From an uncultured Planctomycetaceae bacterium (GTDB lineage Bacteria; Planctomycetota; Planctomycetia; Planctomycetales; Planctomycetaceae): 64,000 bases of DNA. The stretch is taken from NCBI GenBank assembly GCA_963976765.1, contig CAXBME010000005.1, positions 62,001 to 126,000 on the forward strand, given 5' to 3'. Each line of letters opens with the position of its first letter. Within the stretch, counting starts at the first letter, position 1. Position numbers and translations under genes: made by a program. The notes beneath the pieces were generated by a model. That model made no database searches and was not told the origin of the DNA. It worked only from the letters and a program-made list of their open reading frames with translations. Positions 3,528 through 29,456 of this stretch are shown here, one piece after another.

Positions 3528-6500
3528 TCGACCGTATTGCTCTTCTTTCTGACCTGCAGTCGCTGTTGAAGCGGCTGGAAGCTGATTTGCTGGACCGCAG
3601 TGACTCGGATGATGTGCCCGAAGTCCGCGAGTGGCTGCTGCGCGAGTATCAGCAGGCGAAGGAATCCGAACGCACCGCGCAGACTCAGAAGCAGTGGGTC
3701 GATGACTTCATCACGCAGGTCGCGGCCGCGTGGGTGCTCAGTGCGGTGTTTGCCCGGTTTCTGGAAGACAACGGGCTGGTTGATCCGCCGCGTATCAGCG
3801 GGCCTCAGGATGTCGACAATCCCGCCAGCAGTCGGCTCAGCCGGGCTCGGGATGAGCGTGAACTTTATTTCGGCCAGCATCCGAAACACACGGACCGCGA
3901 CTACCTCCTCGACGTGTTTGCCGGGCTGGCGAAGCTGCCGGCGACAGCGGACGTGTTCGGCGAGCACAACCCGTTGAACTCGCTGCCCAACTGGCTGGGA
4001 CCGGACGCGGCGGGCGAGCTGCTGACGTTCTTCCAGAAGATCGATGCCGGCACCGGGCAGCTTGTGCATGACTTCACCGATCCTGATTGGAACACCCGCT
4101 TCCTGGGCGATCTGTATCAGGACCTGTCCGAAGCCGCCCGCAAGAAGTACGCGCTGCTGCAGACGCCTGAGTTCGTCGAGGAGTTCATCCTCGACCGCAC
4201 CCTCGAACCGGCTCTGGACGAGTTCGGCCTGACCGAGTTCAAGATGATCGACCCCGCCTGTGGCAGTGGCCACTTTCTGCTGGGATCATTCCCCCGAATC
4301 CTCGACCACTGGAATCAGGAAGAGCCGGGGACGAACGTACGGGTGCTGGTGCAGCGAACGCTGGATTCAATTCACGGAGTGGATATCAACCCGTTTGCGA
4401 TTGCGATCGCCCGGTTTCGTCTGCTGCTGGCGGCGCTGGCGGCCTGCGGTGTGAAGCGTCTGGCGGATGCTCCCGCGTTTGCAATGAATCTCGCGTGTGG
4501 CGATTCGCTGTATCACGGCGTCGAGCGGCAACAGACGCTGGGCGACTGGACGGACGAGTCGCACTATTTCCGCACCGAAGACGCCGAGAATCTAAGACGC
4601 ATTTTGCAGGAAGGAACCTTTCATGCCGTCGTCGCAAATCCACCCTATATCGTTGTTAGTGATCCGGCGGCGAACGCAGCTTATCGCCGACTCTACAAGG
4701 AAGTCTGTCACAAGCAATACTCGCTCGCCGCACCATTCTTGCAACGCATTAATAAGTTAGGAATTGACTCACATACGAGTGCAGCGTTCACGGGACAGAT
4801 AACCGCGAACAGCTTTATGAACAACGAGTTCGGTACGAAGCTCGTTGAGACTTATCTCCCTACGATTGACTTAACGCATATCGTCGATACTCGCTACCTT
4901 CAGCCAGAGGGGCACGAAACCCCCACTGTGATTCTGTTTGGAAGGGCGAGGCGACCGGTCAATGCTGATGTGCGGGTGGTGCGAGGAATCAAGGGAGAAT
5001 CGCCCGTTCCGCCAGACTTGTCAGCTGGGCAAGTCTGGACCTCAATTCTTCGGCAGATCGACCTGCCCGGTTCTGAGGGCGAGTTTGTCTCGGTGTGTGA
5101 CACAAGCCGGGAAGAACTCTCAACTCACCCTTGGTCGATTGGTGGAGGCGGAGCGTCAGAGCTTTATGACTACCTTGTCAGCACAGCGAACACAAAGTTA
5201 CGTGTTCATCTCAGTGAAATCGGGCGCACGACGCACACTGGTGAAAACCCCGCATTCTATCTATTAAACGGAGCAGACCGCACTCGTGGCTGGAGTGATT
5301 GGGTTCTTCCCGTTGTAAGTGGGGAGGATATTCGTGACTGGCTGATAGAGCCCGAAGAAGTGACGATATTTCCATATGATCACCAAACAGGTGAGCGGCG
5401 GGACAACATGCCAATTACGCTGTCACGTCACTATTGGATTCATCGTGCGACCCTACGGTCGAGACAAGATTTCGGAGAGACGATTGAAGAGCGAGGTTTG
5501 CATTGGACAGATCACTCGATGTTCTTTCCGAAACGCCATCGCCACACTACGTCAGTTGCATTCGCCTTTAAGGCAACGCACAACCATTTTGCCTTAAATG
5601 ACAGCCGATTCGTCTTCAATCAAACCGCACCGGTGATTCAGCTTCGAGAGGGCACACGAAAAGACTACTGTGAGCTGCGTGAGATTCTAAACTCATCGGT
5701 GAGTTCTCTTTGGGAGCGAGAAGTCCACCGAGAAGTAAGTGGAAAACGTGAAGAACGATGGCAGGGCCGCCTAGAACGAAATTCAACTAAGCTGAAGGAC
5801 TTTCCACTTCCTGAGGAACGCCCAAGTATTCAATCATCAGCAATTGAATTAAATGTCGCGAATCTAAGCGGATCACTTCCCTACACTGTGGTCCAAAAGT
5901 GGGTTGACTCTGGTAGGGACGAACTCGCAGTACTGCTTGAAGCTGCGAAGCATTCAGCAAATGAGGCAATCGCTTTGTTGATCCGCCTCCAAGAGGACCT
6001 CGACTGGGAATGCTACCGTCTTTACGGTTTGTGTGAGGACGACCTGACGTACCAGAGTTGTCAGTCGTCAGTCGTCAGTGGTCAGGAAGACTCTGAAAAC
6101 CGTGAACTGACAACTGATAATTCCTTCGGCATCCAGCTTGGCGAGCGGGCCTTCGAGATCGTGCTGGCGCGCAAGATGACTCGCGGCGAAGTTGCGACCA
6201 CGTGGTTCGAGCGGCACGGCAGTACGCCCATTACGGAACTGCCCGATCAATGGCCCGACGACTACCGGCAACTGGTCGAACGCCGCATCGCCGTCATCGA
6301 GTCCAATCCGCAGATCGCCCTCATCGAGCAGCCCGAATACAAACGCCGCTGGAACACCGAATCGTGGGACTCGCAGGTAGAGCGTGCTCTGAAGTTCCGG
6401 CTGCTGAATCGCCTCGAAAGCTACTTCGACTTCGACGGGCGGATGCGCGGTGAAGAGAGTAGTGAGACTGCCACGGCTCCGCTCGCTGAGATCGCTGTGG

Positions 6501-7609
6501 TGTCGCTTTCCCGCCTGGCAGACGTAGCAGCGAGGGACGAGCAGTTCATGGAAGTGGGTGAGGTCTACCGCGACGACCCGGCCTTCCACGTCCAGCGTCT
6601 CGTCGAGGAACTCGTCGCCGCCGAACACGTCCCGTTGCTGCCGGTCCTTCGCTACAACCCCACCGGACTCCGAAAACGCGAACAGTGGGAAGACACCTGG
6701 GAACTGCAGCGTGAAGAGGACGAGCTGGAACGACAGCGGACGGCACTCCGGCATGCGCTGAAGCTGCGTGAAAAGGAACTGGAGCAACAGCACTCAGAGG
6801 AGCTGGCTGCGATCGCAGTCGCTCGGAAACCGCTGCTGACGGCCTGTCTCAGCCTGAGTGAGGTGTTGCCGGAGCCTCCGGAAATCGACGAGTCACAAGA
6901 CGCTGAAGGCATGGCTGCACAGCTGCTCGCGTTGAAGATCGCCGGCAAGCACAAGGCAGCGGCCACGGCTGTGCATGACGGTCAGGAAGCCGTCTTGAAA
7001 GCAAAGCGAACACTGCGTCGAGCGGTCCTTAAAGCAGCGGCCGCCGACACGAAATATCAGGACCTCGCCACCGAACTGGAAGCTGTCCCTGAAAACCCGG
7101 AAATCCCAGTCCCGCCCAAGTACGCCGCTAAGGACTTCATCTCGACCGGCGGAGCGAGGTACTGGTCACTGCGAGGCAAGCTGGACGTGCCGAAGGAACG
7201 CTGGATCAGCTTCCCTCACAGCCACGCCGAGGACGGGTCACTCACAATCTGCTGGGCGGGTTACGACCACCTGCAGCAGGCGACGGCGATCAGTGCCTGG
7301 TACGTGGATATCCGGGACCGTCAGGGCGGCAAAGAGGACTCGCGTCTGATCCCGCTGCTGGCCTGCCTGATCGAGCTGCTGCCGTGGCTGAAGCAGTGGC
7401 ACAACGACATCGACCCGACCTACGACATGGCCATGGGCGACTACTTCGCCGGCTTCGTCCAGGAAGAAGCCCGCTCCCTGAACATGACCCAGGACGAAAT
7501 CAAAGCCTGGCAGCCACCGAAGAAGGCAAAGAAGAAAGCCACCAGGAAGAAGGCAACCCGCAAGAAAGCGACAAAAAAGAAGGCAGCCTCTGAGGAGACA
7601 GCCGAGTGA
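3524..7609 (+). CDS. pglX: BREX-2 adenine DNA methyltransferase PglX
   Basis: DPACGSGHFL and VANPPY motifs, FLGDLYQDLSE, C-terminal RGKLDVPKERWI; overlaps pglW stop. Confidence 0.93.
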   Translation: MIDRIALLSDLQSLLKRLEADLLDRSDSDDVPEVREWLLREYQQAKESERTAQTQKQWVDDFITQVAAAWVLSAVFARFLEDNGLVDPPRISGPQDVDNPASSRLSRARDERELYFGQHPKHTDRDYLLDVFAGLAKLPATADVFGEHNPLNSLPNWLGPDAAGELLTFFQKIDAGTGQLVHDFTDPDWNTRFLGDLYQDLSEAARKKYALLQTPEFVEEFILDRTLEPALDEFGLTEFKMIDPACGSGHFLLGSFPRILDHWNQEEPGTNVRVLVQRTLDSIHGVDINPFAIAIARFRLLLAALAACGVKRLADAPAFAMNLACGDSLYHGVERQQTLGDWTDESHYFRTEDAENLRRILQEGTFHAVVANPPYIVVSDPAANAAYRRLYKEVCHKQYSLAAPFLQRINKLGIDSHTSAAFTGQITANSFMNNEFGTKLVETYLPTIDLTHIVDTRYLQPEGHETPTVILFGRARRPVNADVRVVRGIKGESPVPPDLSAGQVWTSILRQIDLPGSEGEFVSVCDTSREELSTHPWSIGGGGASELYDYLVSTANTKLRVHLSEIGRTTHTGENPAFYLLNGADRTRGWSDWVLPVVSGEDIRDWLIEPEEVTIFPYDHQTGERRDNMPITLSRHYWIHRATLRSRQDFGETIEERGLHWTDHSMFFPKRHRHTTSVAFAFKATHNHFALNDSRFVFNQTAPVIQLREGTRKDYCELREILNSSVSSLWEREVHREVSGKREERWQGRLERNSTKLKDFPLPEERPSIQSSAIELNVANLSGSLPYTVVQKWVDSGRDELAVLLEAAKHSANEAIALLIRLQEDLDWECYRLYGLCEDDLTYQSCQSSVVSGQEDSENRELTTDNSFGIQLGERAFEIVLARKMTRGEVATTWFERHGSTPITELPDQWPDDYRQLVERRIAVIESNPQIALIEQPEYKRRWNTESWDSQVERALKFRLLNRLESYFDFDGRMRGEESSETATAPLAEIAVVSLSRLADVAARDEQFMEVGEVYRDDPAFHVQRLVEELVAAEHVPLLPVLRYNPTGLRKREQWEDTWELQREEDELERQRTALRHALKLREKELEQQHSEELAAIAVARKPLLTACLSLSEVLPEPPEIDESQDAEGMAAQLLALKIAGKHKAAATAVHDGQEAVLKAKRTLRRAVLKAAAADTKYQDLATELEAVPENPEIPVPPKYAAKDFISTGGARYWSLRGKLDVPKERWISFPHSHAEDGSLTICWAGYDHLQQATAISAWYVDIRDRQGGKEDSRLIPLLACLIELLPWLKQWHNDIDPTYDMAMGDYFAGFVQEEARSLNMTQDEIKAWQPPKKAKKKATRKKATRKKATKKKAASEETAE
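6055..6123. repeat. Heptamer-repeat inverted hairpin in frame within pglX
   Basis: TCAGTCG/TCAGTCG/TCAGTGG arm pairs with CTGACAA/CTGATAA arm; 69 nt. Confidence 0.75.
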
Positions 7610-20892: not shown

Positions 20893-20964
20893 GGGTCGGT
20901 AGCTGAGATGGTTTAGCGACGGTCTGAAGAACCGTAGACGAGGATTCAAGCGCCTCTCGACCCA
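20893..20964 (+). tRNA. tRNA-Phe(GAA), imperfect T-arm
   Basis: Acceptor GGGTCGG/TCGACCC; ACGGT-CTGAAGA-ACCGT. Confidence 0.75.
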
Positions 20965-20992
20965 CTTGCGCATCTGATGCGCACTCGCACAT

Positions 20993-21066
20993 GCCCCGTT
21001 CTTCTAATGGCTCAGGATGCTGGTCTTTCAAGCCGGCGATGCCGGGTTCAATTCCCGCACGGGGTA
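20993..21066 (+). tRNA. tRNA-Glu(TTC)
   Basis: Cloverleaf; loop CTTTCAA. Confidence 0.85.
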
Positions 21067-21072
21067 CTACAT

Positions 21073-21145
21073 GGCCTGTTAGTGAAACTGGACATCACGA
21101 GACGCTTCGAACGTCTTATTCCGGGTTCGAATCCTGGGCGGGCTA
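21073..21145 (+). tRNA. tRNA-Arg(TCG)
   Basis: AGACG-CTTCGAA-CGTCT; TTCGAAT T-loop. Confidence 0.9.
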
Positions 21146-21152
21146 CTTACAA

Positions 21153-21225
21153 CGGGATGAAGGGGAGTTGGCGCCCCGCCTGGTTTGGGACCAGGAGATC
21201 GCAGGTTCGAATCCTGTCATCCCGA
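21153..21225 (+). tRNA. tRNA-Pro(TGG)
   Basis: CCTGG-TTTGGGA-CCAGG; C1-G72, A73. Confidence 0.9.
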
Positions 21226-21243
21226 CTGACGAAGACTCAACAC

Positions 21244-21316
21244 AGCCCGGTCGTTCAACGGTCGAGGACGCCGTTCTGATAAGGCGGAGACGAAGGTTCG
21301 ACTCCTTCTCGGGCTA
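21244..21316 (+). tRNA. tRNA-Ile(GAT)
   Basis: Loop CTGATAA; cloverleaf. Confidence 0.88.
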
Positions 21317-21395
21317 CTTGAAATTCACACAGACAATACCCGGAGCCTGACATGCCGACGCTGCATCGATTGAAACAGATACCCACTCCTCGCAC

Positions 21396-21467
21396 GAGGT
21401 CGTGGTGTAACGGCAGCACAGCAGACTTTTAATCTGCACGGCGAGGGTTCGAATCCCTCCGACCTCA
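21396..21467 (+). tRNA. tRNA-Lys(TTT)
   Basis: GCAGA-CTTTTAA-TCTGC. Confidence 0.9.
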
Positions 21468-21486
21468 TTGAGCAACACGAGGCACA

Positions 21487-21558
21487 CGGCCCGTAGCTCA
21501 AGGGTGAGAGCAGGCTCCTTATAAGGGCACGACGACGGTTCGACTCCGTCTGGGCCGA
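21487..21558 (+). tRNA. tRNA-Ile(TAT), rare anticodon
   Basis: Loop CTTATAA; A73; canonical D and T arms. Confidence 0.85.
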
Positions 21559-21572
21559 CTGAGAGAAGAACC

Positions 21573-21821
21573 ATGAAACGCACAATTTACAGGCAATGCG
21601 AAGTCCGTCGCGGACCGGCATTCCGGCTGACTTGGATACCGGCATCGTTCGCGGTCAACGGCAAGATGCTGAATTTGCGTGACAACGGTGAGTGGTCCGA
21701 TGGCTGGGTCGTCACCGAAGTCTATCCGGACACCGAGCGGATCATCACGCCGACTCCGCAGAGTGAAATCAGACGTCACCGAAGAGCAACGGGAGACTCG
21801 CTTCCGCGGCTCGCCAAGTAA
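21573..21821 (+). CDS. 82-aa hypothetical protein embedded in tRNA array
   Basis: Fills gap between two tRNAs, purine-rich RBS, Trp-rich sequence. Confidence 0.65.
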   Translation: MKRTIYRQCEVRRGPAFRLTWIPASFAVNGKMLNLRDNGEWSDGWVVTEVYPDTERIITPTPQSEIRRHRRATGDSLPRLAK

Positions 21822-21827
21822 CAACAC

Positions 21828-21900
21828 GGGATCGAGGTGTTAGCGGCAGCACATCCGGCTCTTAACCGGACAGGTGAGGGTTCGAGCCCCTCCGATCCTA
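21828..21900 (+). tRNA. tRNA-Lys(CTT)
   Basis: TCCGG-CTCTTAA-CCGGA. Confidence 0.9.
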
Positions 21901-21911
21901 CTCGACGACCA

Positions 21912-21983
21912 GCACTGGTCGTTCAGCGGCAAGGACACCGCACTCGTAATGCGGCAACGTGGGTTCGAGTCCCACCCGGTGCT
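21912..21983 (+). tRNA. tRNA-Thr(CGT)
   Basis: CCGCA-CTCGTAA-TGCGG. Confidence 0.9.
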
Positions 21984-22016
21984 CTGTAGTTCTTTGACAA
22001 TTGGTTCATTTCATCA

Positions 22017-22087
22017 GCGCCCATGATGTAGCGGCAGCCTACTGCCTTGCCATGGCGGAAGTGCGGGTTCGACTCCCGCTGGGCGCT
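22017..22087 (+). tRNA. tRNA-Gly(GCC)
   Basis: Loop TTGCCAT; U73. Confidence 0.85.
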
Positions 22088-22114
22088 CTCGGCATACATT
22101 GAGTCTGCACTTAT

Positions 22115-22205
22115 CAGGGCGTGGGAAAGTCTGGCCCCTTTTTGTTTTGAACAGGTCGAGTGCTTCGTGAGCACGAGATCGTCGGTTCAAATCCGGCCGT
22201 CCTGA
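22115..22205 (+). pseudogene. tRNA-Pro-bodied gene with element in D-arm and CGT anticodon
   Basis: CAGGGCG/CGTCCTG-A acceptor and T-arm intact; D-arm 3' half replaced (22135-22158); loop TTCGTGA. Confidence 0.7.
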
Positions 22206-22235
22206 CTGCGGCTTCGGCCGCGACATAAACAACAT

Positions 22236-22310
22236 TGCGGTGGTGCTCGTGCTGGTACGGGCAGGCGGCTGTTAACCGTTTTGACGCAGGTTCGATTCCT
22301 GCCACCGCAG
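22236..22310 (+). tRNA. tRNA-Asn(GTT)
   Basis: Loop CTGTTAA; U1-A72, G73. Confidence 0.85.
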
Positions 22311-22316
22311 CTTTGG

Positions 22317-22402
22317 GGAAGTCATCCGGCTGGATGAGGAGCCTGCCTCGAAAGCAGGTGAGGGCAAATTGTCCGTTGTGGGTTCGAGTCCCACGGCTTC
22401 CG
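22317..22402 (+). tRNA. tRNA-Ser(CGA)
   Basis: CCTGC-CTCGAAA-GCAGG; long variable arm; G73. Confidence 0.85.
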
Positions 22403-22418
22403 CTTCGTGAAACAACAC

Positions 22419-22490
22419 GTGCCCTTGGCCGAGCGGCAAAGGTTCCAGGCTTCCAACCTGGCGAGGCGGGTTCGACTCCCGCAGGGCACT
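22419..22490 (+). tRNA. tRNA-Gly(TCC)
   Basis: CCAGG-CTTCCAA-CCTGG; U73. Confidence 0.9.
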
Positions 22491-22498
22491 CTCTTCAT

Positions 22499-22570
22499 TG
22501 CGGGGTGTCTGTTGGTCGACCGGCGTGGCTTTGAACCACGTCGACGCGGGTTCGATTCCTGCACCCGCAA
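22499..22570 (+). tRNA. tRNA-Gln(TTG), atypical D-arm
   Basis: CGTGG-CTTTGAA-CCACG; U1-A72. Confidence 0.75.
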
Positions 22571-22599
22571 CTTCGATGACGGCTCGAACAGGAATCCAA

Positions 22600-22670
22600 T
22601 GCGGGATCGTTCAATGGCAGGACGCGGCGCTCTGAACGCCGTAATGCTGGTTCGAGTCCAGCTCCCGCAA
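22600..22670 (+). tRNA. tRNA-Gln(CTG)
   Basis: CGGCG-CTCTGAA-CGCCG. Confidence 0.9.
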
Positions 22671-22735
22671 CTGCGGCACTGCCGCTTTGTTCGAGCTACC
22701 GCTCGGATGAGCGATCCAGCGTCGAGAGCAACTAC

Positions 22736-22819
22736 GGAAGTCAACCGGCCGGATGAGGAGCCTGTCTTGAAAACAGGTGCGGGGTTAGCCCGTTGTGGGT
22801 TCAAGTCCCACGGCTTCCG
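22736..22819 (+). tRNA. tRNA-Ser(TGA)
   Basis: CCTGT-CTTGAAA-ACAGG; long variable arm; paralog of Ser(CGA). Confidence 0.85.
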
Positions 22820-22837
22820 CCTTCTAAAGAACAAGAC

Positions 22838-22910
22838 GGTCCTGTGGCCCAGCGGCGAGGGCAGCTCCCTTACAAGGAGACGATCGGTGGTTCGAGTCCA
22901 CCCAGGATCA
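22838..22910 (+). tRNA. tRNA-Val(TAC)
   Basis: Loop CTTACAA. Confidence 0.88.
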
Positions 22911-22921
22911 CTTCACGACAT

Positions 22922-22994
22922 GGCACCGTAGCCCAACGGCAGAGGCGGTCGTCTCAAACGCGACGAAGTGTGAGTTCGAATCTCACCGGTGCCA
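22922..22994 (+). tRNA. tRNA-Leu(CAA), short variable arm
   Basis: GTCGT-CTCAAAC-GCGAC; 5-nt V loop GAAGT. Confidence 0.85.
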
Positions 22995-23014
22995 CTTGAA
23001 GCAAAACACAACAT

Positions 23015-23089
23015 GCCCTCGCAGAGCAGCCAGGAGTGCTCGCCATCCTGTCACGATGGAGATCGTCGGTTCGAATCCGATCGGGGGTG
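23015..23089 (+). tRNA. tRNA-Asp(GTC)
   Basis: CCATC-CTGTCAC-GATGG; G73. Confidence 0.88.
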
Positions 23090-23122
23090 CTTGTCACAAA
23101 CGGAAAAAGAAAAAGAACTTTC

Positions 23123-23195
23123 GACGCGGTAGCCCAATGGGAGAGGCAACCGGTTTAAGCCCGGTCCAGTGTGGGTTCGACTCCCACCCGCGTCA
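23123..23195 (+). tRNA. tRNA-Leu(TAA), short variable arm
   Basis: ACCGG-TTTAAGC-CCGGT; V loop CCAGT. Confidence 0.85.
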
Positions 23196-23214
23196 TTCAC
23201 ACAGCAATCACGAC

Positions 23215-23285
23215 GGCCCATTCGTCTAGCGGCAGGATGCCAGGTTCTCAGCCTGGAGACGGGAGTTCGATTCTCCCATGGGTCA
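23215..23285 (+). tRNA. tRNA-Glu(CTC)
   Basis: CCAGG-TTCTCAG-CCTGG. Confidence 0.9.
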
Positions 23286-23301
23286 CTCAGTAGCAAGACA
23301 T

Positions 23302-23375
23302 GGCACCGTAGCCCAATTAGTAGAGGCGTCTGGCTTAGGACCAGAAGGTTGAGAGTTCGAATCTCTCCGGTGCTA
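23302..23375 (+). tRNA. tRNA-Leu(TAG), short variable arm
   Basis: TCTGG-CTTAGGA-CCAGA; V loop AGGTT. Confidence 0.85.
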
Positions 23376-23395
23376 TTCACAAAAGAATCCAACAC

Positions 23396-23477
23396 GCGTC
23401 GGCTGGGCACTGGTGAGCCCACGTGGCTGTAACCCACACGCCGAAAGGCTTTGGCGGTTCAACTCCGTCCCGACGCA
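23396..23477 (+). tRNA. tRNA-Tyr(GTA)
   Basis: Loop CTGTAAC; long V arm GCC-GAAA-GGC. Confidence 0.88.
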
Positions 23478-23496
23478 CTCGACATCTCATGAATAC

Positions 23497-23569
23497 GGTG
23501 GCGTAGTGTCAATGGCGAGCACGACGGATCGTCGATCCGTTAGAGCGGGTTCGAGGCCCGTCGTCACCG
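23497..23569 (+). tRNA. Atypical tRNA, anticodon GTC (Asp-like, C33)
   Basis: ACGGA-TCGTCGA-TCCGT; GGTGGCG/CGTCACC, G73. Confidence 0.65.
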
Positions 23570-23589
23570 TCGCGTTTAGACAGCAACAT

Positions 23590-23672
23590 GACCAGGTGGT
23601 GGAACGGTAGACACGCGACGCTCAGAACGTCGTGCCCTTTGAGGCATGGGAGTTCGAATCTCCCTCTGGTCA
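23590..23672 (+). tRNA. tRNA-Leu(CAG), long variable arm
   Basis: CGACG-CTCAGAA-CGTCG. Confidence 0.9.
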
Positions 23673-23677
23673 CTGAC

Positions 23678-23768
23678 GAGTTGAAAGTTGCGAGTGCAGA
23701 GTGGAGAGATTCGGCGAACCTGATCGTCGACCGCTGACTCTCAACTCGGAACCTTCAACACTCAACTC
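23678..23768. repeat. Heptamer-repeat inverted hairpin spacer
   Basis: GAGTTGA-type units opposite TCAACTC-type units. Confidence 0.65.
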
Positions 23769-23770
23769 AT

Positions 23771-23840
23771 TGCAGGTGCGGCAGGTGCCCAGTTGGCTCT
23801 CATAAGGCCGGCCTCCCCGGCTCGATACCGGGACCTGCAA
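23771..23840 (+). tRNA. Atypical tRNA-Met/Ile2(CAT), mini D-arm
   Basis: TGCAGGT/ACCTGCA; loop CTCATAA; T-loop CTCGATA. Confidence 0.65.
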
Positions 23841-23863
23841 CTTTTCAAACAGAAACAACACAT

Positions 23864-23931
23864 CGCGGGTGGGCGAGGCTCATCGGGGTTTCATAAGCCT
23901 CGACAACCGGGTGCGACTCCCGGACCCGCTA
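23864..23931 (+). tRNA. Atypical initiator-like tRNA-Met(CAT), mini D-arm
   Basis: CGCGGGT/ACCCGCT with C1:T72 mismatch; loop TTCATAA; T-loop TGCGACT. Confidence 0.65.
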
Positions 23932-23940
23932 CTTCCAAGA

Positions 23941-24019
23941 GAGTCGAGAGCTGAGTGCCCAGAGTCGAGAGACAGCCTCGTTGCTGGTCCCTGGACTCTC
24001 GTCTCTCAACTCTGGACTC
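23941..24019. repeat. Heptamer-repeat inverted hairpin spacer
   Basis: GAGTCGA/GAGCTGA units opposite CTGGACT/CTCAACT units. Confidence 0.65.
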
Positions 24020-24024
24020 AACCC

Positions 24025-24096
24025 GACTCCGTGGTCCAACGGCAACGACACCTGCGTGACATGCAGGAGACGATGGTTCAACTCCGTCCGGGGTCA
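24025..24096 (+). tRNA. tRNA-Val(GAC)
   Basis: CCTGC-GTGACAT-GCAGG (G32). Confidence 0.85.
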
Positions 24097-24115
24097 CTTG
24101 AGCTGAAGTAAGAAT

Positions 24116-24186
24116 GGTCTGCAGGTGTTTCGGCGGCACACCGCTGTGGTAAGGCGGAAGGCCGGGTTCAATTCCCGGGCGGACCT
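24116..24186 (+). tRNA. tRNA-Thr(GGT)
   Basis: CCGCT-GTGGTAA-GGCGG (G32). Confidence 0.85.
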
Positions 24187-24205
24187 CTTGAAGAGAAGAC
24201 GACAC

Positions 24206-24276
24206 GGGCTGCTCGTCCAATGGGAAGACGCCTGGCTTGCAACCAGGTAATCGGGGTTCGACTCCCCGGCGGTCCA
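24206..24276 (+). tRNA. tRNA-Ala(TGC)
   Basis: G3:U70; CCTGG-CTTGCAA-CCAGG. Confidence 0.9.
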
Positions 24277-24288
24277 CTTGATGACAAC

Positions 24289-24359
24289 GGGGTCATGGTC
24301 CAACGGGACGACTCCAGCATGGCATGCTGGCAATCCGGGTTCGATTCCCGGTGACTCCA
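24289..24359 (+). tRNA. tRNA-Ala(GGC)
   Basis: G3:U70; CCAGC-ATGGCAT-GCTGG. Confidence 0.9.
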
Positions 24360-24367
24360 CTCGATAC

Positions 24368-24453
24368 GGAAGGTAGCCGGATACGGTTGGCCGGACCGCA
24401 CTGCTAATGCGTGTGCCTTTACGGGCGTGTGAGTTCGAATCTCATGCCTTCCG
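24368..24453 (+). tRNA. tRNA-Ser(GCT)
   Basis: Loop CTGCTAA; long V arm; G73. Confidence 0.85.
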
Positions 24454-24462
24454 CTTTGATAT

Positions 24463-24551
24463 GGCCTGATGGTGAAACGGAAATCATCCCTCGCTTCTAA
24501 CGAGGCCCCGTCTCGTTTGTAACAGGGCGGGTTCGAATCCTGGTCGGGCTA
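24463..24551 (+). tRNA. tRNA-Arg(TCT) with 21-nt element in variable loop
   Basis: CCTCG-CTTCTAA-CGAGG; V region 24506-24526 versus 4 nt in paralog Arg(TCG). Confidence 0.75.
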
Positions 24552-24582
24552 CTGAGAAGACAAGCCGCCTGTTGCGGCAAAA

Positions 24583-24690
24583 GGAAGGGCAACCCGATGG
24601 GTGACGGGAACCGGTTGGAAGCCGGTCGAGTGCGTTGACGCGTGCCTTGCGAGTTCGACTCGGGCACCGCCCGCAGGGTGGTCCCTTCCG
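24583..24690 (+). pseudogene. tRNA-Ser(GGA) with hairpin element in T-stem
   Basis: ACCGG-TTGGAAG-CCGGT; acceptor intact; 24662-24680 interrupts 3' T-stem. Confidence 0.75.
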
Positions 24691-24692
24691 CT

Positions 24693-24768
24693 GTGGCCGG
24701 GTCCGGTGCTGGTTTCCGGAGACAGACTGTGAATCTGTTCGTCGTCGGTTCAATTCCGATCGGCCACC
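24693..24768 (+). tRNA. tRNA-His(GTG), no encoded G-1
   Basis: ACAGA-CTGTGAA-TCTGT; C73; base -1 is T. Confidence 0.85.
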
Positions 24769-24865
24769 TCCAAACCGAGCGTTTGGATCGGATTGCCGTA
24801 GGGGAGCGTCACCAGATTGGGACGCCGCTACGGCGAGTGAGTTTTATGAGCAAAGGACTGGATCG

Positions 24866-25462
24866 ATGGTTGCTGCTGTACTTGATCGACCAACGCTGGT
24901 GCTGAATCGCAACTGGCAGCCTGTCGGCGTCGCCACGGTTGCGAAGGCGCTGACGAAGGTCTGGAACGAGTCGGCGCGGATCGTCGATCCTGCTGACTAC
25001 CAGCAATACACATGGCAGGACTGGGCACAACTGCGACCGGAAGACGGCGATCTGTTCATTCAGACTCGTCGATTCCAGTTGCGGGTTCCGGAGGTTGTCA
25101 CACTGACGAAGTACGACCGCCTGCCGACGAACTCGGTGATGTTCAGCCGGCGAAATGTCTTCAAGCGAGACAAGTTCACGTGCCAGTATTGCGGTGCTCG
25201 ACCAGGCAGCGAGGAATTGACGATCGACCACGTCACGCCGAGGGCTCAGGGTGGAACATCCACCTGGGTCAACTGTGTGCTGGCGTGCATCGGCTGCAAC
25301 TCGCGCAAGGCTGACCGGACTCCGGAGCAGGCTCGGATGCCGCTGCGATCAAAGCCGGTTCGGCCGACGTGGCGACCGCTGTACGCGGCTCGCGGAGTCC
25401 GCATCGAAAGCTGGTCACGTTTCGTTAGCGAGAGCTACTGGAACATAGAACTGAGTGAGTGA
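24866..25462 (+). CDS. HNH endonuclease
   Basis: TLVLN N-terminus, RDKFTCQYCG, LTIDHV.P, CIGCN..K; start re-assigned to MVAAV. Confidence 0.9.
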   Translation: MVAAVLDRPTLVLNRNWQPVGVATVAKALTKVWNESARIVDPADYQQYTWQDWAQLRPEDGDLFIQTRRFQLRVPEVVTLTKYDRLPTNSVMFSRRNVFKRDKFTCQYCGARPGSEELTIDHVTPRAQGGTSTWVNCVLACIGCNSRKADRTPEQARMPLRSKPVRPTWRPLYAARGVRIESWSRFVSESYWNIELSE

Positions 25463-25507
25463 CACGAGTCGCTGCCGGCCTCGGCGTTGAGGTCGGCAGC
25501 TTTACAC

Positions 25508-25577
25508 AGCGGTGTGCTCCTGGGAGAGCAGGCAGATTCCAAACCTGTCCCACGGGGTTCGACTCCTCGCACCGTTG
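25508..25577 (+). tRNA. tRNA-Trp(CCA)
   Basis: AGCGGTG/CACCGTT, G73; loop TTCCAAA. Confidence 0.8.
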
Positions 25578-25600
25578 CTGCGGCATTGCCGCATTAAGTT

Positions 25601-25691
25601 GCCGACGTGGCTCGATACAGAAAGGCGCCGGTCTTGCCCTGTCACAATTTGCAAACGGCGGATCATGCGGGTGCGAATCCTGCCGTCGGCC
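25601..25691 (+). pseudogene. tRNA-Thr(TGT)-like gene with element in anticodon loop
   Basis: GCCGACG/CGTCGGC acceptor, T-arm present; CTTG followed by 25 nt where 8 expected. Confidence 0.7.
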
Positions 25692-25696
25692 CTCAA

Positions 25697-25785
25697 GCCC
25701 AGCGGATGTGATGAACAGAATGGCGGTCTTCAATGCCCGCTGGACGAGGTTCGACGGGCGGCGCCCGAAGAATAGTCCGGCGGAA
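25697..25785 (+). pseudogene. Decayed tRNA (Arg-like body) with hairpin element after T-loop
   Basis: GGCGG..CCCGC anticodon-arm remnant, CGAGGTTCGA, then element similar to the Ser(GGA) insert. Confidence 0.5.
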
Positions 25786-25802
25786 TTTTTAATGCACAAC
25801 GC

Positions 25803-25875
25803 GTCCTCGGAGTGTGGCGGATTCGCACGCGACCCTGCGAAGGTCGAGGACCAGGTTCGATTCCTAGCGGGGACA
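25803..25875 (+). tRNA. tRNA-Arg(GCG), rare anticodon
   Basis: CGACC-CTGCGAA-GGTCG. Confidence 0.88.
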
Positions 25876-25894
25876 CTTTTCATTTCGACAACAC

Positions 25895-25966
25895 GACACC
25901 GATGCTCGATGGTCGGGCGGCTGCCTGCAAAGCAGCTCATAGTGAGTTCGATTCTCACCGGTGTCT
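25895..25966 (+). tRNA. tRNA-Cys(GCA)
   Basis: GCTGC-CTGCAAA-GCAGC; U73. Confidence 0.9.
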
Positions 25967-26064
25967 CTTTAATGCTTGCCTTGATGCTGTCATTGCCGGC
26001 GGTGCGTTGGGCTCAAGAGTCAGCCTGACGTATTCCGTGAACGGGTTTTGAACATGACGGTGTC

Positions 26065-26140
26065 GATGTGGTCGCCCAATTGGTAGGGCACCAGGTTTTG
26101 CACCTGGCTGTTACGGGTTCGAGTCCCGTCCACGGCTCCA
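26065..26140 (+). ncRNA. tRNA-like RNA with encoded CCA, mismatched acceptor, loop TTTTGCA
   Basis: Well-formed D arm (GCCC/GGGC), CCAGG/CCTGG stem, ACGGG-TTCGAGT-CCCGT; ends TCCA. Confidence 0.7.
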
Positions 26141-26142
26141 AC

Positions 26143-26496
26143 TCTGGCTAAGAACCAGATGAGGCCCGGGCGCGAAAGCGTCCACCAAAGACCCAAGGGA
26201 GATGGGTGACTGACTGATCGGCTGCCGGTGCCGGCATTTCGCAGTCGGACGTCGCGGCGAGAGTCGTGATTGTCGGATTGCGGGTGACGACATTCGGCGG
26301 CAGCACGAAAGGCGTGCCCTGCAGTGTGTGGATACCGCATTCGCAACCTGTGACGCGAGCAGATTGAATCGTGATGACCTGCCAAGACGCCTGTCGCCAA
26401 CGCTGGCTGATCGATGACACCTGCAAACCTCACAGGACGAGATTGCTCAAGCACACTCCGCACGGCGAAGTGTGGTCGGCAGACCTCTCATCTCCC
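26143..26496 (+). ncRNA. Large multi-helix structured RNA of unknown family
   Basis: Closing helix 26197-26206/26487-26496, internal helices, GAAA and GAGA tetraloops, no credible ORF. Confidence 0.65.
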
Positions 26497-26596
26497 AACG
26501 GTTCTTTTTAGAAACAACAACGACACGAATAGCAAAGTTTACCGCAGGCACGTGCCTGCGATTCAGAGTTCGTCACCCGATGAAAGGCGGTGGCAC

Positions 26597-27703
26597 ATGT
26601 TCCCGATCAAGACAATCCGAATTCGCAGCTACGAGATGGGACTGCGCTTCCACGACGGAGAGTTCCGCGGTCTGCTCGCTGAGGGTAAGCACCGACTGTT
26701 CGATCCACTGTGCAAGTCGCATGTCGGTGTCGTCTCGCGGCGTGATCCGTGGCTGCAGCACGAGAAGCTGGACGTCATCGTGAAGTCCGGTGCGCTAAAG
26801 GATCGCGCCATCGTTGTGGACCTCAAGGATCACGAGCGTGGTCTGGTCTCAATCGAAGGCCGCTTCAGTCATGTTCTGCCGCCGGGCCTGTACGCCTACT
26901 GGATCGGTATGAAGGATGTGCAGGTCGAGGTGATTGATGCGCGGAACGTCCGCTTCGAGCACAGCGATTTACGAGTCATCTCTCGGTCGCCGATGGTCGG
27001 GCAGGTTCTCGACATCTGCACGGTCAACCGGCAGTGTGTCGGCGTCCTGTTCATCGACGGCCGCTACATCGACACGCTCGACTCGGGTCTGTACGCGTTC
27101 TGGAAGGGAGCCGGAGACGCCAAGGTCGTCGAGATCGATCTGCGCGAGACGATGGCTGACGTCAGCGGTCAGGAGATCATGACGTTGGACAAGGTCTCGC
27201 TGCGGATGAACGCGGTCGTGACGTACCGGATCGTGGATGCACGGAAGGCCATCACAACAACCGACGATGTTCGGCAGACGCTGTACCGTGAGGTGCAGCT
27301 GGCTCTGCGGGCGGTTATCGGAGCACGCGAACTCGACTCGTTCCTGACCGACAAAGATGCGGTCGCGAGTGAGATGGAGGAACTTGTGCGGCACCGCGCC
27401 GCGGAACTTGGTCTGGAAGTCGCTTCGGTCGGAATCCGGGATGTGATTCTGCCGGGTGACATGAAGGACTTGATGAACAAGGTCACGGAGGCAAAGAAGG
27501 CCGCCGAGGCCAACCTCATCTCGCGGCGCGAAGAGACGGCCGCCATGCGCAGTCAGGCCAACACGGCCAAGGTGCTGGCGGACAACCCGACTCTGATGCG
27601 GCTCCGGGAACTGGAGGTCCTGGAAAGGATCGCCACGACCGGCAACCTGAACGTCATACTCGGCGAAAAGGGACTGGCCGACCGCGTCGTCAATCTGCTG
27701 TAA
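26597..27703 (+). CDS. Slipin-type SPFH/band-7 protein
   Basis: Repeated N-terminal L.PG.Y.W units, SPFH core (GQEIMTLDKVSLR, IRDVILPG), NPTLMRLRELE; start re-assigned to MFPIK. Confidence 0.88.
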   Translation: MFPIKTIRIRSYEMGLRFHDGEFRGLLAEGKHRLFDPLCKSHVGVVSRRDPWLQHEKLDVIVKSGALKDRAIVVDLKDHERGLVSIEGRFSHVLPPGLYAYWIGMKDVQVEVIDARNVRFEHSDLRVISRSPMVGQVLDICTVNRQCVGVLFIDGRYIDTLDSGLYAFWKGAGDAKVVEIDLRETMADVSGQEIMTLDKVSLRMNAVVTYRIVDARKAITTTDDVRQTLYREVQLALRAVIGARELDSFLTDKDAVASEMEELVRHRAAELGLEVASVGIRDVILPGDMKDLMNKVTEAKKAAEANLISRREETAAMRSQANTAKVLADNPTLMRLRELEVLERIATTGNLNVILGEKGLADRVVNLL

Positions 27704-27766: not shown

Positions 27767-28924
27767 CTATCGTCGCGAACCTTTGTAACTCAGAACCGGA
27801 CGCAGCTCGCGTTCGATGCGCGTCAATTCGGACTGTGCTCGCATGACTGCGTGGATGTCACGGTACGCGGACGGTGCTTCGTCTCGCAGGCCTGCCGCAA
27901 TGTTGTGGTCGAACCACACCGATCGCATTTGCTGATGCAGCGACCGGGCTGTCACCGACTTCTTTGCGTCCGTGCGACTGAAACGTCGTCCTGCGCCGTG
28001 TGAGCTGCTGCACAAGGACTGGGCATTGCCTCGGCCAGTGACGTGGAAACTCGCCGTGCCCATCGAACCGGGGATGATTCCCGGTTTGCCATCGTGAGCA
28101 CTCTGGGCGCCCTTTCTGTGGACGAGGAACTGCTGACCTCCATGTTGTTCCCGACGAACATGATTGTGGTTGCTCTGTATGAGCGTCTGTGGATCGGCTT
28201 CTACGCCGAACCGGGTATAGAGAATGTCGCTGGCGGCACTCAGCATGGCCAGTCGGTTCAACTCTGCGTACTGCGATGCCCACTCCACGTCGTTGATGTA
28301 CTCAGTCCCGGCTGGTGAGTTCGCGTCAACAAACCCAAGGCCGTTCGATTGTGAGTCACACTTGCTGATGTGAAGTGATGAGACCAACTGACCGATCCCA
28401 CGAGAGCCGCTGTGGACCATCAGCCACAGGCGTCCAGACTGATCGGCCTGGAACTCCAGGAAGTGGTTGCCTCGACCAAGTGACCCAAACTGCACGCGCG
28501 CGTCACGCTGCTTTTCCGCTTCGAGACGTGGACAACTCAGAGGACGGGCAAGCAGGTCATCGGGTAAAGATTCCGGCATCGTCTCCCGGTGATGGCGATT
28601 CGCTGGCACGTACCGATAAAGGTCGGCCAGCAGAGTTGCTGCGGCGGTTTCGTTTCCAAGGACGTCGGCATTGGCATCAAAACCGATGGCGGCCATGCCA
28701 CAGCCGATGTCACTCCCAACGGCTGCGGGGTAAAGCAGCCGGGACGTTGCAAGAACGACGCCGACGCAGACATCTCCCGCCAAGTGGACATCAGGCATGA
28801 CGGCGATGCGTTGAACGTCATCCGCCTCAGACAGACGCCGTAGTGATGTTTGCACGTCGTGACTGAGCGGTTCGGTAAGCCAGACTGGGATATCGTCTCC
28901 GGCAGTGATGTGCTTACTACTCAT
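27767..28924 (-). CDS. rtcB: RNA ligase RtcB
   Basis: MPDVH, VGSDIGCGM, GRGNHFLE, HSGSRG, HRKGA, PGSMG, HGAGR, DEAP; AGGAG RBS. Confidence 0.93.
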   Translation of the reverse strand: MSSKHITAGDDIPVWLTEPLSHDVQTSLRRLSEADDVQRIAVMPDVHLAGDVCVGVVLATSRLLYPAAVGSDIGCGMAAIGFDANADVLGNETAAATLLADLYRYVPANRHHRETMPESLPDDLLARPLSCPRLEAEKQRDARVQFGSLGRGNHFLEFQADQSGRLWLMVHSGSRGIGQLVSSLHISKCDSQSNGLGFVDANSPAGTEYINDVEWASQYAELNRLAMLSAASDILYTRFGVEADPQTLIQSNHNHVRREQHGGQQFLVHRKGAQSAHDGKPGIIPGSMGTASFHVTGRGNAQSLCSSSHGAGRRFSRTDAKKSVTARSLHQQMRSVWFDHNIAAGLRDEAPSAYRDIHAVMRAQSELTRIERELRPVLSYKGSRR

Positions 28925-29369
28925 CTTCGCTCCTATCAATCACGTCATTCGTCGCCTGGGTCGACACAATGCGGAACCTCAGCGCGGGCGCACGTTTGCG
29001 AGTGATTGAGGCAGCGACCTCGGAACGAAGCCGGCCGGCAACTCGATCCAGTCGTTCCAGCACGACGGATGGATCGGCAGGGGCTTCGAGACTGCTCTCG
29101 ATACTGACCGTCACAAGCATTTGCGAGGCGTTGGGCGCTGGGATGACAGACTCGACGATGAGCGACTGCAGCAGCTCGTCGGAAAACTCGCCAGACAGGA
29201 CCAGGCTCAGCGTCTGCTCGACCTGCTGGCAGAGCTGCTGTGTCTTGCGGTCCCGTTTGTTTCGATCCGAATGACTTTTGAAGAAGCGGCGTGGATCGAC
29301 GCCGTCGTCTTCCTGAATCTCTCCACAGCACGCGAGCATCTGCTCGCGCTGACGATTGTTGAGTGGCAT
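28917..29369 (-). CDS. RbfA-like ribosome-binding factor paralog
   Basis: RbfA-type C-terminus (GRLRSEVAASITRKRAPALRF) with extra CCGE..DDG.DPR N-terminus; overlaps rtcB start. Confidence 0.75.
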   Translation of the reverse strand: MPLNNRQREQMLACCGEIQEDDGVDPRRFFKSHSDRNKRDRKTQQLCQQVEQTLSLVLSGEFSDELLQSLIVESVIPAPNASQMLVTVSIESSLEAPADPSVVLERLDRVAGRLRSEVAASITRKRAPALRFRIVSTQATNDVIDRSEDE

Positions 29370-29456
29370 AAGGCTCTCACAAGGGAATGGCGTTGAGGCT
29401 GAAGAATTGGAAGCCACGCCGTGAGAGCTGGTCAAATCGCTGCAGACTGACCTTGG

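Follow-up and report, generated by a model that had tools for sequence, protein, structure and literature searches.

The described system closest to the RNA reported here is b7a-tRNA, a tRNA-like noncoding RNA (ncRNA) beside Band-7/SPFH genes and RtcB operons in many phyla, which the accessible text of its 2018 description treats as a prediction without validation (bioRxiv 10.1101/312249). According to the accessible portions of other reports, Rtc (RNA-repair) operons are triggered by anticodon-loop cleavage, with the ncRNA YrlA proposed as a nuclease competitor (PMC7790460); the Pseudomonas rtc locus contains an SPFH gene (PMC13086221); tRNA arrays, rtcB, and HNH of Anabaena are co-induced by translational stress (PMC8421152), and the Anabaena slipin alr0740 belongs to the same regulon, rising 42-fold on derepression together with rtcB, HNH, and the trn array (PMC10272220); and some GOLLD RNAs carry an embedded tRNA (PMC12990946). 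Here we describe a structured RNA of about 530 nucleotides (nt) directly upstream of a slipin (SPFH/Band-7) gene in an uncultured Planctomycetaceae bacterium (GenBank assembly GCA_963976765.1, the source genome; contig CAXBME010000005.1, positions 62,001 to 126,000 of the forward strand). This 64,000-nt stretch is called the window, and all coordinates refer to it. The RNA spans about 25980 to 26505 in four parts and, judged from its sequence and that of its homologs, fits a modular planctomycete form of the slipin-associated ("b7a") RNA. The known part corresponds to the predicted b7a-tRNA; the conserved 3' core is apparently undescribed, and we found no description of the 3' domain in the literature searched, subscription papers and supplements being outside its scope.

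Like b7a-tRNA, this RNA contains a strongly tRNA-like unit. It differs from b7a-tRNA, compared by the available part of its description only, in that the tRNA-like part makes up about 65 of 530 nt and is flanked by a 5' hairpin and extra mimics, in its 320-nt 3' domain with an invariant core, and in its tie to long tRNA arrays, mostly without adjacent RtcB; no b7a-tRNA family turned up in Rfam searches. YrlA, which is associated with Ro60, is likewise a tRNA-mimicking ncRNA of RtcR/RtcB RNA-repair operons. The tRNA-like part of YrlA is permuted, whereas the mimic described here has the normal D-anticodon-T order with an anticodon loop, and its partner gene encodes an SPFH protein; the YrlA model reached at best 31.6 bits against a cutoff of 69, in 2 of 20 loci and on tRNA parts only. 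GOLLD (Rfam family RF02032) and ROOL are comparable, as far as their accessible descriptions go, as large ornate RNAs of tRNA arrays, some with an embedded tRNA, but here the embedded unit is a mimic rather than a real tRNA, the link to a protein gene is fixed, and the GOLLD and ROOL covariance models gave no match (window at E ≤ 10; 20 loci at E ≤ 0.5). A tmRNA was rejected as well: the window contains no tmRNA call, and the absence of frame bias upstream of slipin in 47 loci indicates that no conserved open reading frame (ORF) is present there, by which an in-frame upstream extension of slipin (ORF from 26414) was also judged noncoding. GOLLD, ROOL, YrlA, tmRNA, and true tRNA thus each fail a tested defining feature.

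Architecture and conservation of the RNA

We gathered 80 loci by slipin homology and searched them with a profile built from 27 seeds, which returned 63 full-length matches; with one duplicate locus dropped and the window copy included, the set comprises 63 distinct elements of about 460 to 590 nt with a mean identity of 52%. They have in common the division into four parts, a one-to-one association with slipin, tRNA modules unfit for charging, and a core that crosses phyla. An initial annotation of the window had noted an unassigned, highly structured RNA of ~300 to 350 nt upstream of slipin, and its central claim of a large structured ncRNA tied to slipin and lacking an Rfam family was borne out: the proposed Infernal/Rfam comparison gave only tRNA and chance-level matches (window, 4 distant loci, 20 homologous loci), those in the window being tRNAs and a search around 26143 to 26496 at E ≤ 10 yielding no credible match, and the proposed homolog comparison gave the 63 elements with compensatory changes. 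Its extent was too narrow, however, since the structure first noted is the 3' domain of a larger RNA that begins near 25980 and takes in the "tRNA-Gln(TTG)" called by ARAGORN at 26065 to 26140; the larger RNA had been missed, as had the fit of its tRNA-like part to the predicted b7a-tRNA. Decisive support for the structure comes from conservation and covariation, as the sequence folds only modestly better than shuffles (z of −3.4 against dinucleotide shuffles for the whole element, −2.9 for the P3 domain, −2.36 for 26100 to 26520, and −2.0 for the span first annotated).

The 5' module is a long irregular hairpin whose helices 1 and 2 are 99% and 90% paired, with two-sided changes in 15 of 20 pairs, and the same bulged motif occurs in 43/52 Bacillota-type leaders and, by eye, in proteobacterial leaders. 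In a 45-row alignment of this hairpin together with the tRNA mimic that follows it, 94% of cells pair, 25 of 37 pairs show two-sided changes, and the covariation score is 0.42, compared with 0.17 for shuffles and <0.10 for slid controls. The mimic, the unit that ARAGORN calls tRNA-Gln, is also called by the Rfam tRNA model, and its D, anticodon, and T arms are 99 to 100% paired. Its short acceptor stem covaries (pair 26071-26130 at E ~0) and is further broken in one clade. Two features of authentic tRNAs are absent, namely, a 7-bp acceptor stem ending in NCCA and an anticodon identity kept among orthologs: a clean 7-nt anticodon loop is found in 56 of the 63 elements, with 22 different anticodons among these 56, 20 of which begin with A34. 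Bacteria avoid A34 apart from Arg-ACG. Because the acceptor stem has 3 bp, 22 anticodons occur in 56 homologs, and 20 of these start with A34, the mimic is no decoder. The shape of the loop is nonetheless retained (U33 in 46/56, A37 in 44/56, and A38 in 45/56), and the tRNA modules, unable to be charged, bear no sign of selection on decoding.

Two further mimics make up the linker between this unit and the 3' domain. A second anticodon-loop mimic is present in 38/59 homologs, compared with 0.17% of shuffled linkers, and a hairpin of at least 5 bp followed directly by NCCA is present in 32/59 elements against a background of 4.2% per position. Both had been glimpsed previously: the GAAA-capped hairpin said to precede the structured RNA is real and is the CCA-tailed hairpin of the linker, and the start of the annotated span is the second anticodon-loop mimic. 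In other families, whole or half tRNA units in tandem occupy the place of the linker.

Counts for the 3' domain rest on the 59 elements that were parsed (4/63 failed to parse). The 10-bp closing helix proposed initially was confirmed as P3, with one G-U pair and support from covariation, and its duplex has z < −2 in 56/59 homologs. Compensatory changes among the 59 number 10 and 4 in P4, up to 26 in P5, 20 and 14 in P6, 15 and 12 in P7, and 21 and 13 in P8, and the P5 arm varies in length from about 30 to 110 nt. The fold imposed by the covariation model (−222.8 kcal/mol) is nearly as stable as the free minimum free energy (MFE) structure (−223.2 kcal/mol), from which the helix set first proposed falls 5 kcal/mol short. 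All the sequence motifs listed for that set occur where they had been placed, and AGTGTGT/GCACACT is supported by covariation, but other pairings needed revision. GCTGCCG had been paired in the wrong register: the partner assigned to it, CGGCAGC, gives 5/6 pairs formed in only 37 to 78% of the 59 homologs with ≤2 compensations, whereas CGGCGGC (26295 to 26301) gives 80 to 100% pairing with up to 26. The four inner pairs of CCGCAC/GTGTGG can form in 92 to 100% of homologs but show only 0 or 1 compensations, and these bases covary instead with 26303-07 and 26315-17. CCGGC/GTCGG (26231-35/26244-48) is absent from both the MFE structure and the model, while the model does contain the GAGA hairpin and CCTGTGA/TCACAGG, both in variable arms. 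The T-rich run noted after the domain is present, but a scan finds no terminator there, and at the bottom of the closing helix the run is paired with AAAGA; a run of at least 4 T follows the element in only 15/59 homologs.

At the center of the 3' domain lies a core of ~17 near-invariant, mostly unpaired nucleotides, arranged as two internal loops 7 bp apart with covarying helices flanking them. Each position of its 5' half is kept in 38 to 39 of the 39 rows of a cross-group alignment (A5), except for a variable A/U at 26334. Covariation was also evaluated on a structure-blind alignment by a G-test with a tree-based null: 15 of the 16 top pairs are dominated by Watson-Crick or wobble combinations, with only 3 pairs reaching E ≤ 0.1 and 4 reaching E ≤ 0.5. 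An anchored rerun (55/59 parsed) revealed no pseudoknot, interdomain, or tertiary covariation; its closing-helix columns were misregistered and produced artifact pairs. These data delimit the b7a-tRNA, give it a structure backed by covariation, and define a short invariant core that can be mutated.

Table 1. Coordinates of the RNA modules and neighboring features in the window
Feature	Position	Strand	Details
Long tRNA array	20893..25967	+	37 ARAGORN calls ahead of the tRNA mimic; directly upstream, same strand
HNH endonuclease within tRNA array	24884..25462	+	Start codon uncertain
5' module, long irregular hairpin	25981..26066	+	P1 25981-93/26054-66; inner CCR/YGG, CGG/CCG, UU bulge, YGC/GYR stem
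tRNA mimic (b7a-tRNA-like)	26069..26132	+	D, anticodon, and T arms intact; acceptor stem 3 bp
Second anticodon stem-loop mimic	26143..26159	+	5 bp and 7-nt YUNNNRM loop
GNRA-capped 6-bp hairpin, then ACCA	26168..26187	+	Mimic of an acceptor minihelix, or what is left of a second tRNA-like unit
3' domain	26188..26506	+	Closing helix P3 26197-206/26487-96; P4 26216-19/26474-77
3' domain, three-way junction with variable arm P5	26221-26301	+	
3' domain, helices P6 to P8		+	P6 26303-06/26470-73; P7 26315-17/26460-62; P8 26323-29/26451-57
3' domain, variable arm P9	26337-26446	+	
Invariant core, 5' half	26318..26337	+	UG at 26320-21 and GGAUACCG at 26330-37
Invariant core, 3' half	26446..26459	+	CU-AA at 26446-50, CC at 26458-59; 38 to 39 of 39 rows
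Slipin (SPFH/Band-7) gene	26597..27703	+	Pfam Band_7, E 8e-29
RtcB-family RNA ligase	27767..28939	-	Convergent with slipin

Association with slipin within and beyond planctomycetes

With a strict cutoff, slipin is preceded by the full-length RNA at 56 of the 67 loci, mostly from planctomycetes, that offer at least 800 nt of upstream DNA; among the misses, one (L012) duplicates a removed positive locus and four more have partial matches. The gap between RNA and gene is 11 to 255 nt in 48/56 loci and 430 to 1229 nt in the other 8, six of which have inserted ORFs. Among the longer gaps, L035, L039, and L057 carry, about 430 nt before slipin, a small opposite-strand ORF between RNA and gene, which presumably encodes a four-helix-bundle (IVS-type) protein, and L021, L029, and L030 share a 1.2-kb insertion at the same site. 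L039 also has a second copy of the RNA (6255 to 6900), followed by a truncated second slipin start and preceded by a tRNA-Cys broken by short repeated insertions (6100 to 6260). These searches found no orphan RNA lacking slipin, the second L039 copy also preceding a slipin start. The cultured planctomycetes L019, L050, L081, and L084 carry the RNA, making direct tests feasible.

We surveyed a phylum-wide sample of 151 genomes, 27 of them with slipin, using two covariance models, R1 for the 5' part and R2 for the 3' core, the latter built from 7 loci of other families. All 13 R1 matches of at least 96 bits fall at slipin leaders; R1 matches in two genomes (G163, G155) are ordinary tRNA-Thr and were rejected. 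R2 matched 14/151 genomes, 13 at slipin leaders (7 being training sequences) and one, in G104, that looks like chance. Although built without the window copy, R2 finds it at E 4e-7; since R2 missed known copies (in G103, G049, and contig C74 of the source genome), its misses are not read as absence. The nhmmer profile left the 3' domain undetected in 4 distant loci, in 1 of which the covariance model later found it.

R2 also matched the slipin leader of Subdoligranulum (Bacillota), and in 40 of the 80 metagenome loci gathered with the Subdoligranulum slipin it gave 19 matches, all on the plus strand just before the gene. GATACCG occurs in 44/52 Bacillota-type leaders. A 40-row alignment across groups, biased towards the model because it was fitted to it, has 93% of its cells paired and compensation in 16 of 18 pairs, with a covariation score of 0.77, compared with 0.24 for shuffles; one row was a chance match, and after its removal UG, GGAU-CCG, CU-AA, and CC are kept in 38 to 39 of the 39 rows. 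Elsewhere, slipin occurs in 14/251 genomes of the phylum of G249 (record titled Rhodobacterales), and 11 of 13 proteobacterial-type leaders show at least two T-loop motifs, the other two intervals being mostly coding sequence. The tRNA mimics and the 5' hairpin are thus general features, whereas the 3' core is widespread without being universal.

The neighborhood of the pair also varies. In other phyla we observed the gene orders WYL-WYL-RNA-slipin-RtcB and RtcR/sigma54-RNA-slipin-RtcB, the WYL genes being judged as such from their sequence, and RtcB lies near 18/33 Bacillota-type and 8/13 proteobacterial-type loci. In planctomycetes, the RNA-slipin pair caps a tRNA array (at least 3 tRNAs upstream) in 20 of 48 loci; the other 28 have <3 tRNAs upstream, with the slipin link nonetheless intact. 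An HNH gene is near 11/48 homologous loci, and no conserved protein neighbor was found downstream of slipin in 80 loci.

Contigs from two metatranscriptome studies map to 25991 to 26456; the absence of contigs beyond these limits in runs X1 and X2 was given no weight. One of 416 nt, from a relative, runs unbroken from the 5' module through the mimic and most of the 3' domain, a weak hint of a single transcript. Two contigs start at 25991 and 25995, those of a fourth run of unrecorded type extend further upstream, and metatranscriptome X3 also contains pieces of slipin.

A candidate RNA partner of a vault-like slipin

The AlphaFold model of the window slipin (pLDDT 84; a single-sequence model with pLDDT 42 was set aside) consists of three tandem beta repeats, an SPFH domain, and a long helix and has no transmembrane helix. 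Its Foldseek matches are stomatin, HflK, prohibitin, and major vault protein, and it aligns to major vault protein over 446 columns compared with about 230 for stomatin. The eukaryotic vault combines major vault protein with vault RNA and TEP1. In its predicted structure, the slipin resembles it as an SPFH-fold protein that has repeats at its N terminus, a long helix, and an accompanying ncRNA; it differs in having three repeats only and no TROVE protein, and the likeness seen is one of predicted fold. Ro60/TROVE (PF05731) has 0 matches in the 100%-complete source genome, with controls positive in 2/14.

The RNA probably works with slipin to protect or repair tRNAs under stress. Our preferred account, which we put forward tentatively and at somewhat less than an even chance, is that, in a response to translation stress, it partners a slipin oligomer of vault-like form and serves as a decoy or dock for anticodon nucleases and RtcB. 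Most likely, the RNA is made together with slipin, and here also with the stress tRNA array, upon translation damage. It would then act in trans, joining a soluble, vault-like oligomer of slipin in a ribonucleoprotein, and the protein would hold it by the bulged 5' hairpin and by the invariant core of the 3' domain. The mimics of the anticodon loop and of CCA would face tRNA-cutting nucleases as decoys, would dock RtcB-type ligases with broken tRNAs, or both. We favor this account because the anticodon-loop shape is kept without decoding and this loop is the target of stress nucleases and the Rtc trigger; because the RNA is, in these searches, always found with slipin yet tolerates gaps of 430 nt and more with neither terminator nor frame; and because the slipin model lacks a membrane helix and matches major vault protein over an alignment twice as long as that with stomatin, at a low TM-score. 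A more far-reaching version, possible but to be held more loosely, is that this is a widespread and so far undescribed class of large bacterial ncRNA with an invariant cross-phylum core, forming with a soluble SPFH cage a vault-like particle that presents arrays of anticodon-loop decoys to tRNA-cutting toxins, or with the core as a new sensor of RNA damage. The preferred account would supply a soluble SPFH protein of vault-like architecture with an RNA partner, and it bears on the roles of bacterial RtcB operons, stress tRNA arrays, and vault-like ribonucleoproteins.

Several observations weigh against the slipin-bound decoy or dock. The resemblance to the vault is confined to architecture (TMq 0.40, rmsd 13 Å). 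Searches with the 7-sequence R2 model detected the 3' core in just 1/13 proteobacterial-type leaders, and it was found in 0/3 others (L091, L092, and L094), so it is not a universal handle. By eye, the tRNA modules of the Bacillota-type leaders listed are degenerate or permuted, often without a clear anticodon loop. RtcB is beside 0/60 other planctomycete loci with at least 2.5 kb of downstream DNA, and other RtcB queries place it at only 1/80 loci. The link to RNA repair that the initial annotation had suggested is supported by the slipin-rtcB operons under RtcR or WYL in other phyla; the RtcB flanking the window copy is no conserved neighbor in planctomycetes. Expression is seen at the contig level only, in contigs that carry neither strand nor ends and with DNA carryover possible, and the RNA invariably precedes slipin on its strand, which is where a cis leader would lie. 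RNA-protein binding, decoy action, and regulation are inferred.

That fixed position fits the main competing explanation, which we consider unlikely: the RNA could be the leader of the slipin(-rtcB) mRNA and a cis-acting damage sensor, in which toxin cleavage of the mimics or binding of slipin to the core switches stability or translation. The mostly short gap, the lack of orphan copies, and the slipin pieces in metatranscriptome X3 agree with such a leader, as does an alternative fold (GCA/TGY and CGY/RTG hairpins) that can pair in 83 to 100% of homologs and is the MFE structure in the window copy. That fold has no compensatory support among the 59 homologs, however, and the terminator scan found none after the RNA; the ribosome-binding site lies, by eye, outside the closing helix, insertions separate RNA and gene widely in 8 loci, and transcription is already controlled by RtcR or WYL in other phyla. 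The earlier proposal of a riboswitch likewise lacks an expression platform, as neither a terminator nor a sequestered ribosome-binding site was found.

The 3' core might instead be a new small-molecule aptamer (e.g., one that binds cyclic-phosphate or nucleotide damage products), or else a ribozyme or a processing element freeing the mimics, which we regard as improbable. The concentration of near-invariant unpaired nucleotides in two loops would be typical of a binding pocket, but protein-binding loops look alike, no Rfam riboswitch or ribozyme matched at E ≤ 0.5 in 20 homologous loci, and neither pseudoknot or tertiary covariation nor an expression platform was seen; the ribozyme suggested by the initial annotation matched no known fold (RNase P, group I/II, and small self-cleaving family models). 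Slightly less probable still is an RNA-only oligomeric cage of the GOLLD/ROOL type that stores or shields tRNA-like modules, with slipin merely coregulated. The similar size, the position at the end of tRNA arrays in fewer than half of the loci, and the embedded tRNA described for some GOLLD RNAs (accessible text of PMC12990946) fit such a cage, but the GOLLD and ROOL models found nothing, the arms where kissing loops would sit vary greatly, as in P5, and the slipin link holds at the 28 loci with few tRNAs upstream. Decayed tRNA-array debris or chance structure in GC-rich DNA deserves almost no weight, for although the single-sequence z is only about −2 for the first-annotated span and ARAGORN calls the mimic a tRNA, it is refuted by covariation, by 63 full-length copies at 52% mean identity, and by the cross-phylum core.

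Genomic setting and variant loci

The array that precedes the RNA in the window comprises, with the mimic, 38 ARAGORN calls on the plus strand from 20893 to 26140. It holds a tRNA with anticodon TAT (21487 to 21559) and, between Gln(TTG) and Arg(GCG), a tRNA-like stretch (25695 to 25795) with an apparent T-arm insertion that neither scanner called. The source genome has 123 ARAGORN calls. They include two long, paralogous arrays, both of which finish with the RNA, slipin, and a convergent RtcB-like gene, and a cluster of 13 on contig C27. A DNA search placed the second copy of the RNA, 80% identical, on contig C74, where it is flanked by a tRNA array and slipin and an RtcB-like gene comes next, so that such a gene adjoins both RNA copies; the same search of related genomes gave matches in 9/101. 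An RbfA-like gene overlaps the start of the divergent RtcB-family gene (27767 to 29435, minus strand) and is also found beside the slipin locus in L012 and L077.

Among Bacillota-type leaders, those of L186 to L216, about 250 to 400 nt upstream of slipin, appear by eye to contain a circularly permuted, YrlA-like mimic (T arm, closed acceptor hairpin, D arm), with a common palindrome between the upstream WYL-like gene and the RNA. Some Escherichia coli have a reduced form (record CP061233.1; L091, 2690 to 2990), in which slipin and a nucleotidyltransferase gene are preceded by a sigma54-type promoter, the bulged 5' motif, and a single T arm. Slipin was not found in the phage collection searched, and three IMG/VR contigs carry it, with the RNA present in both of the two that include upstream DNA. 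On one of these viral-database contigs (L156), a 94-kb sequence classed as viral, the whole cassette of tRNA array, RNA, and slipin is present, which hints at mobility.
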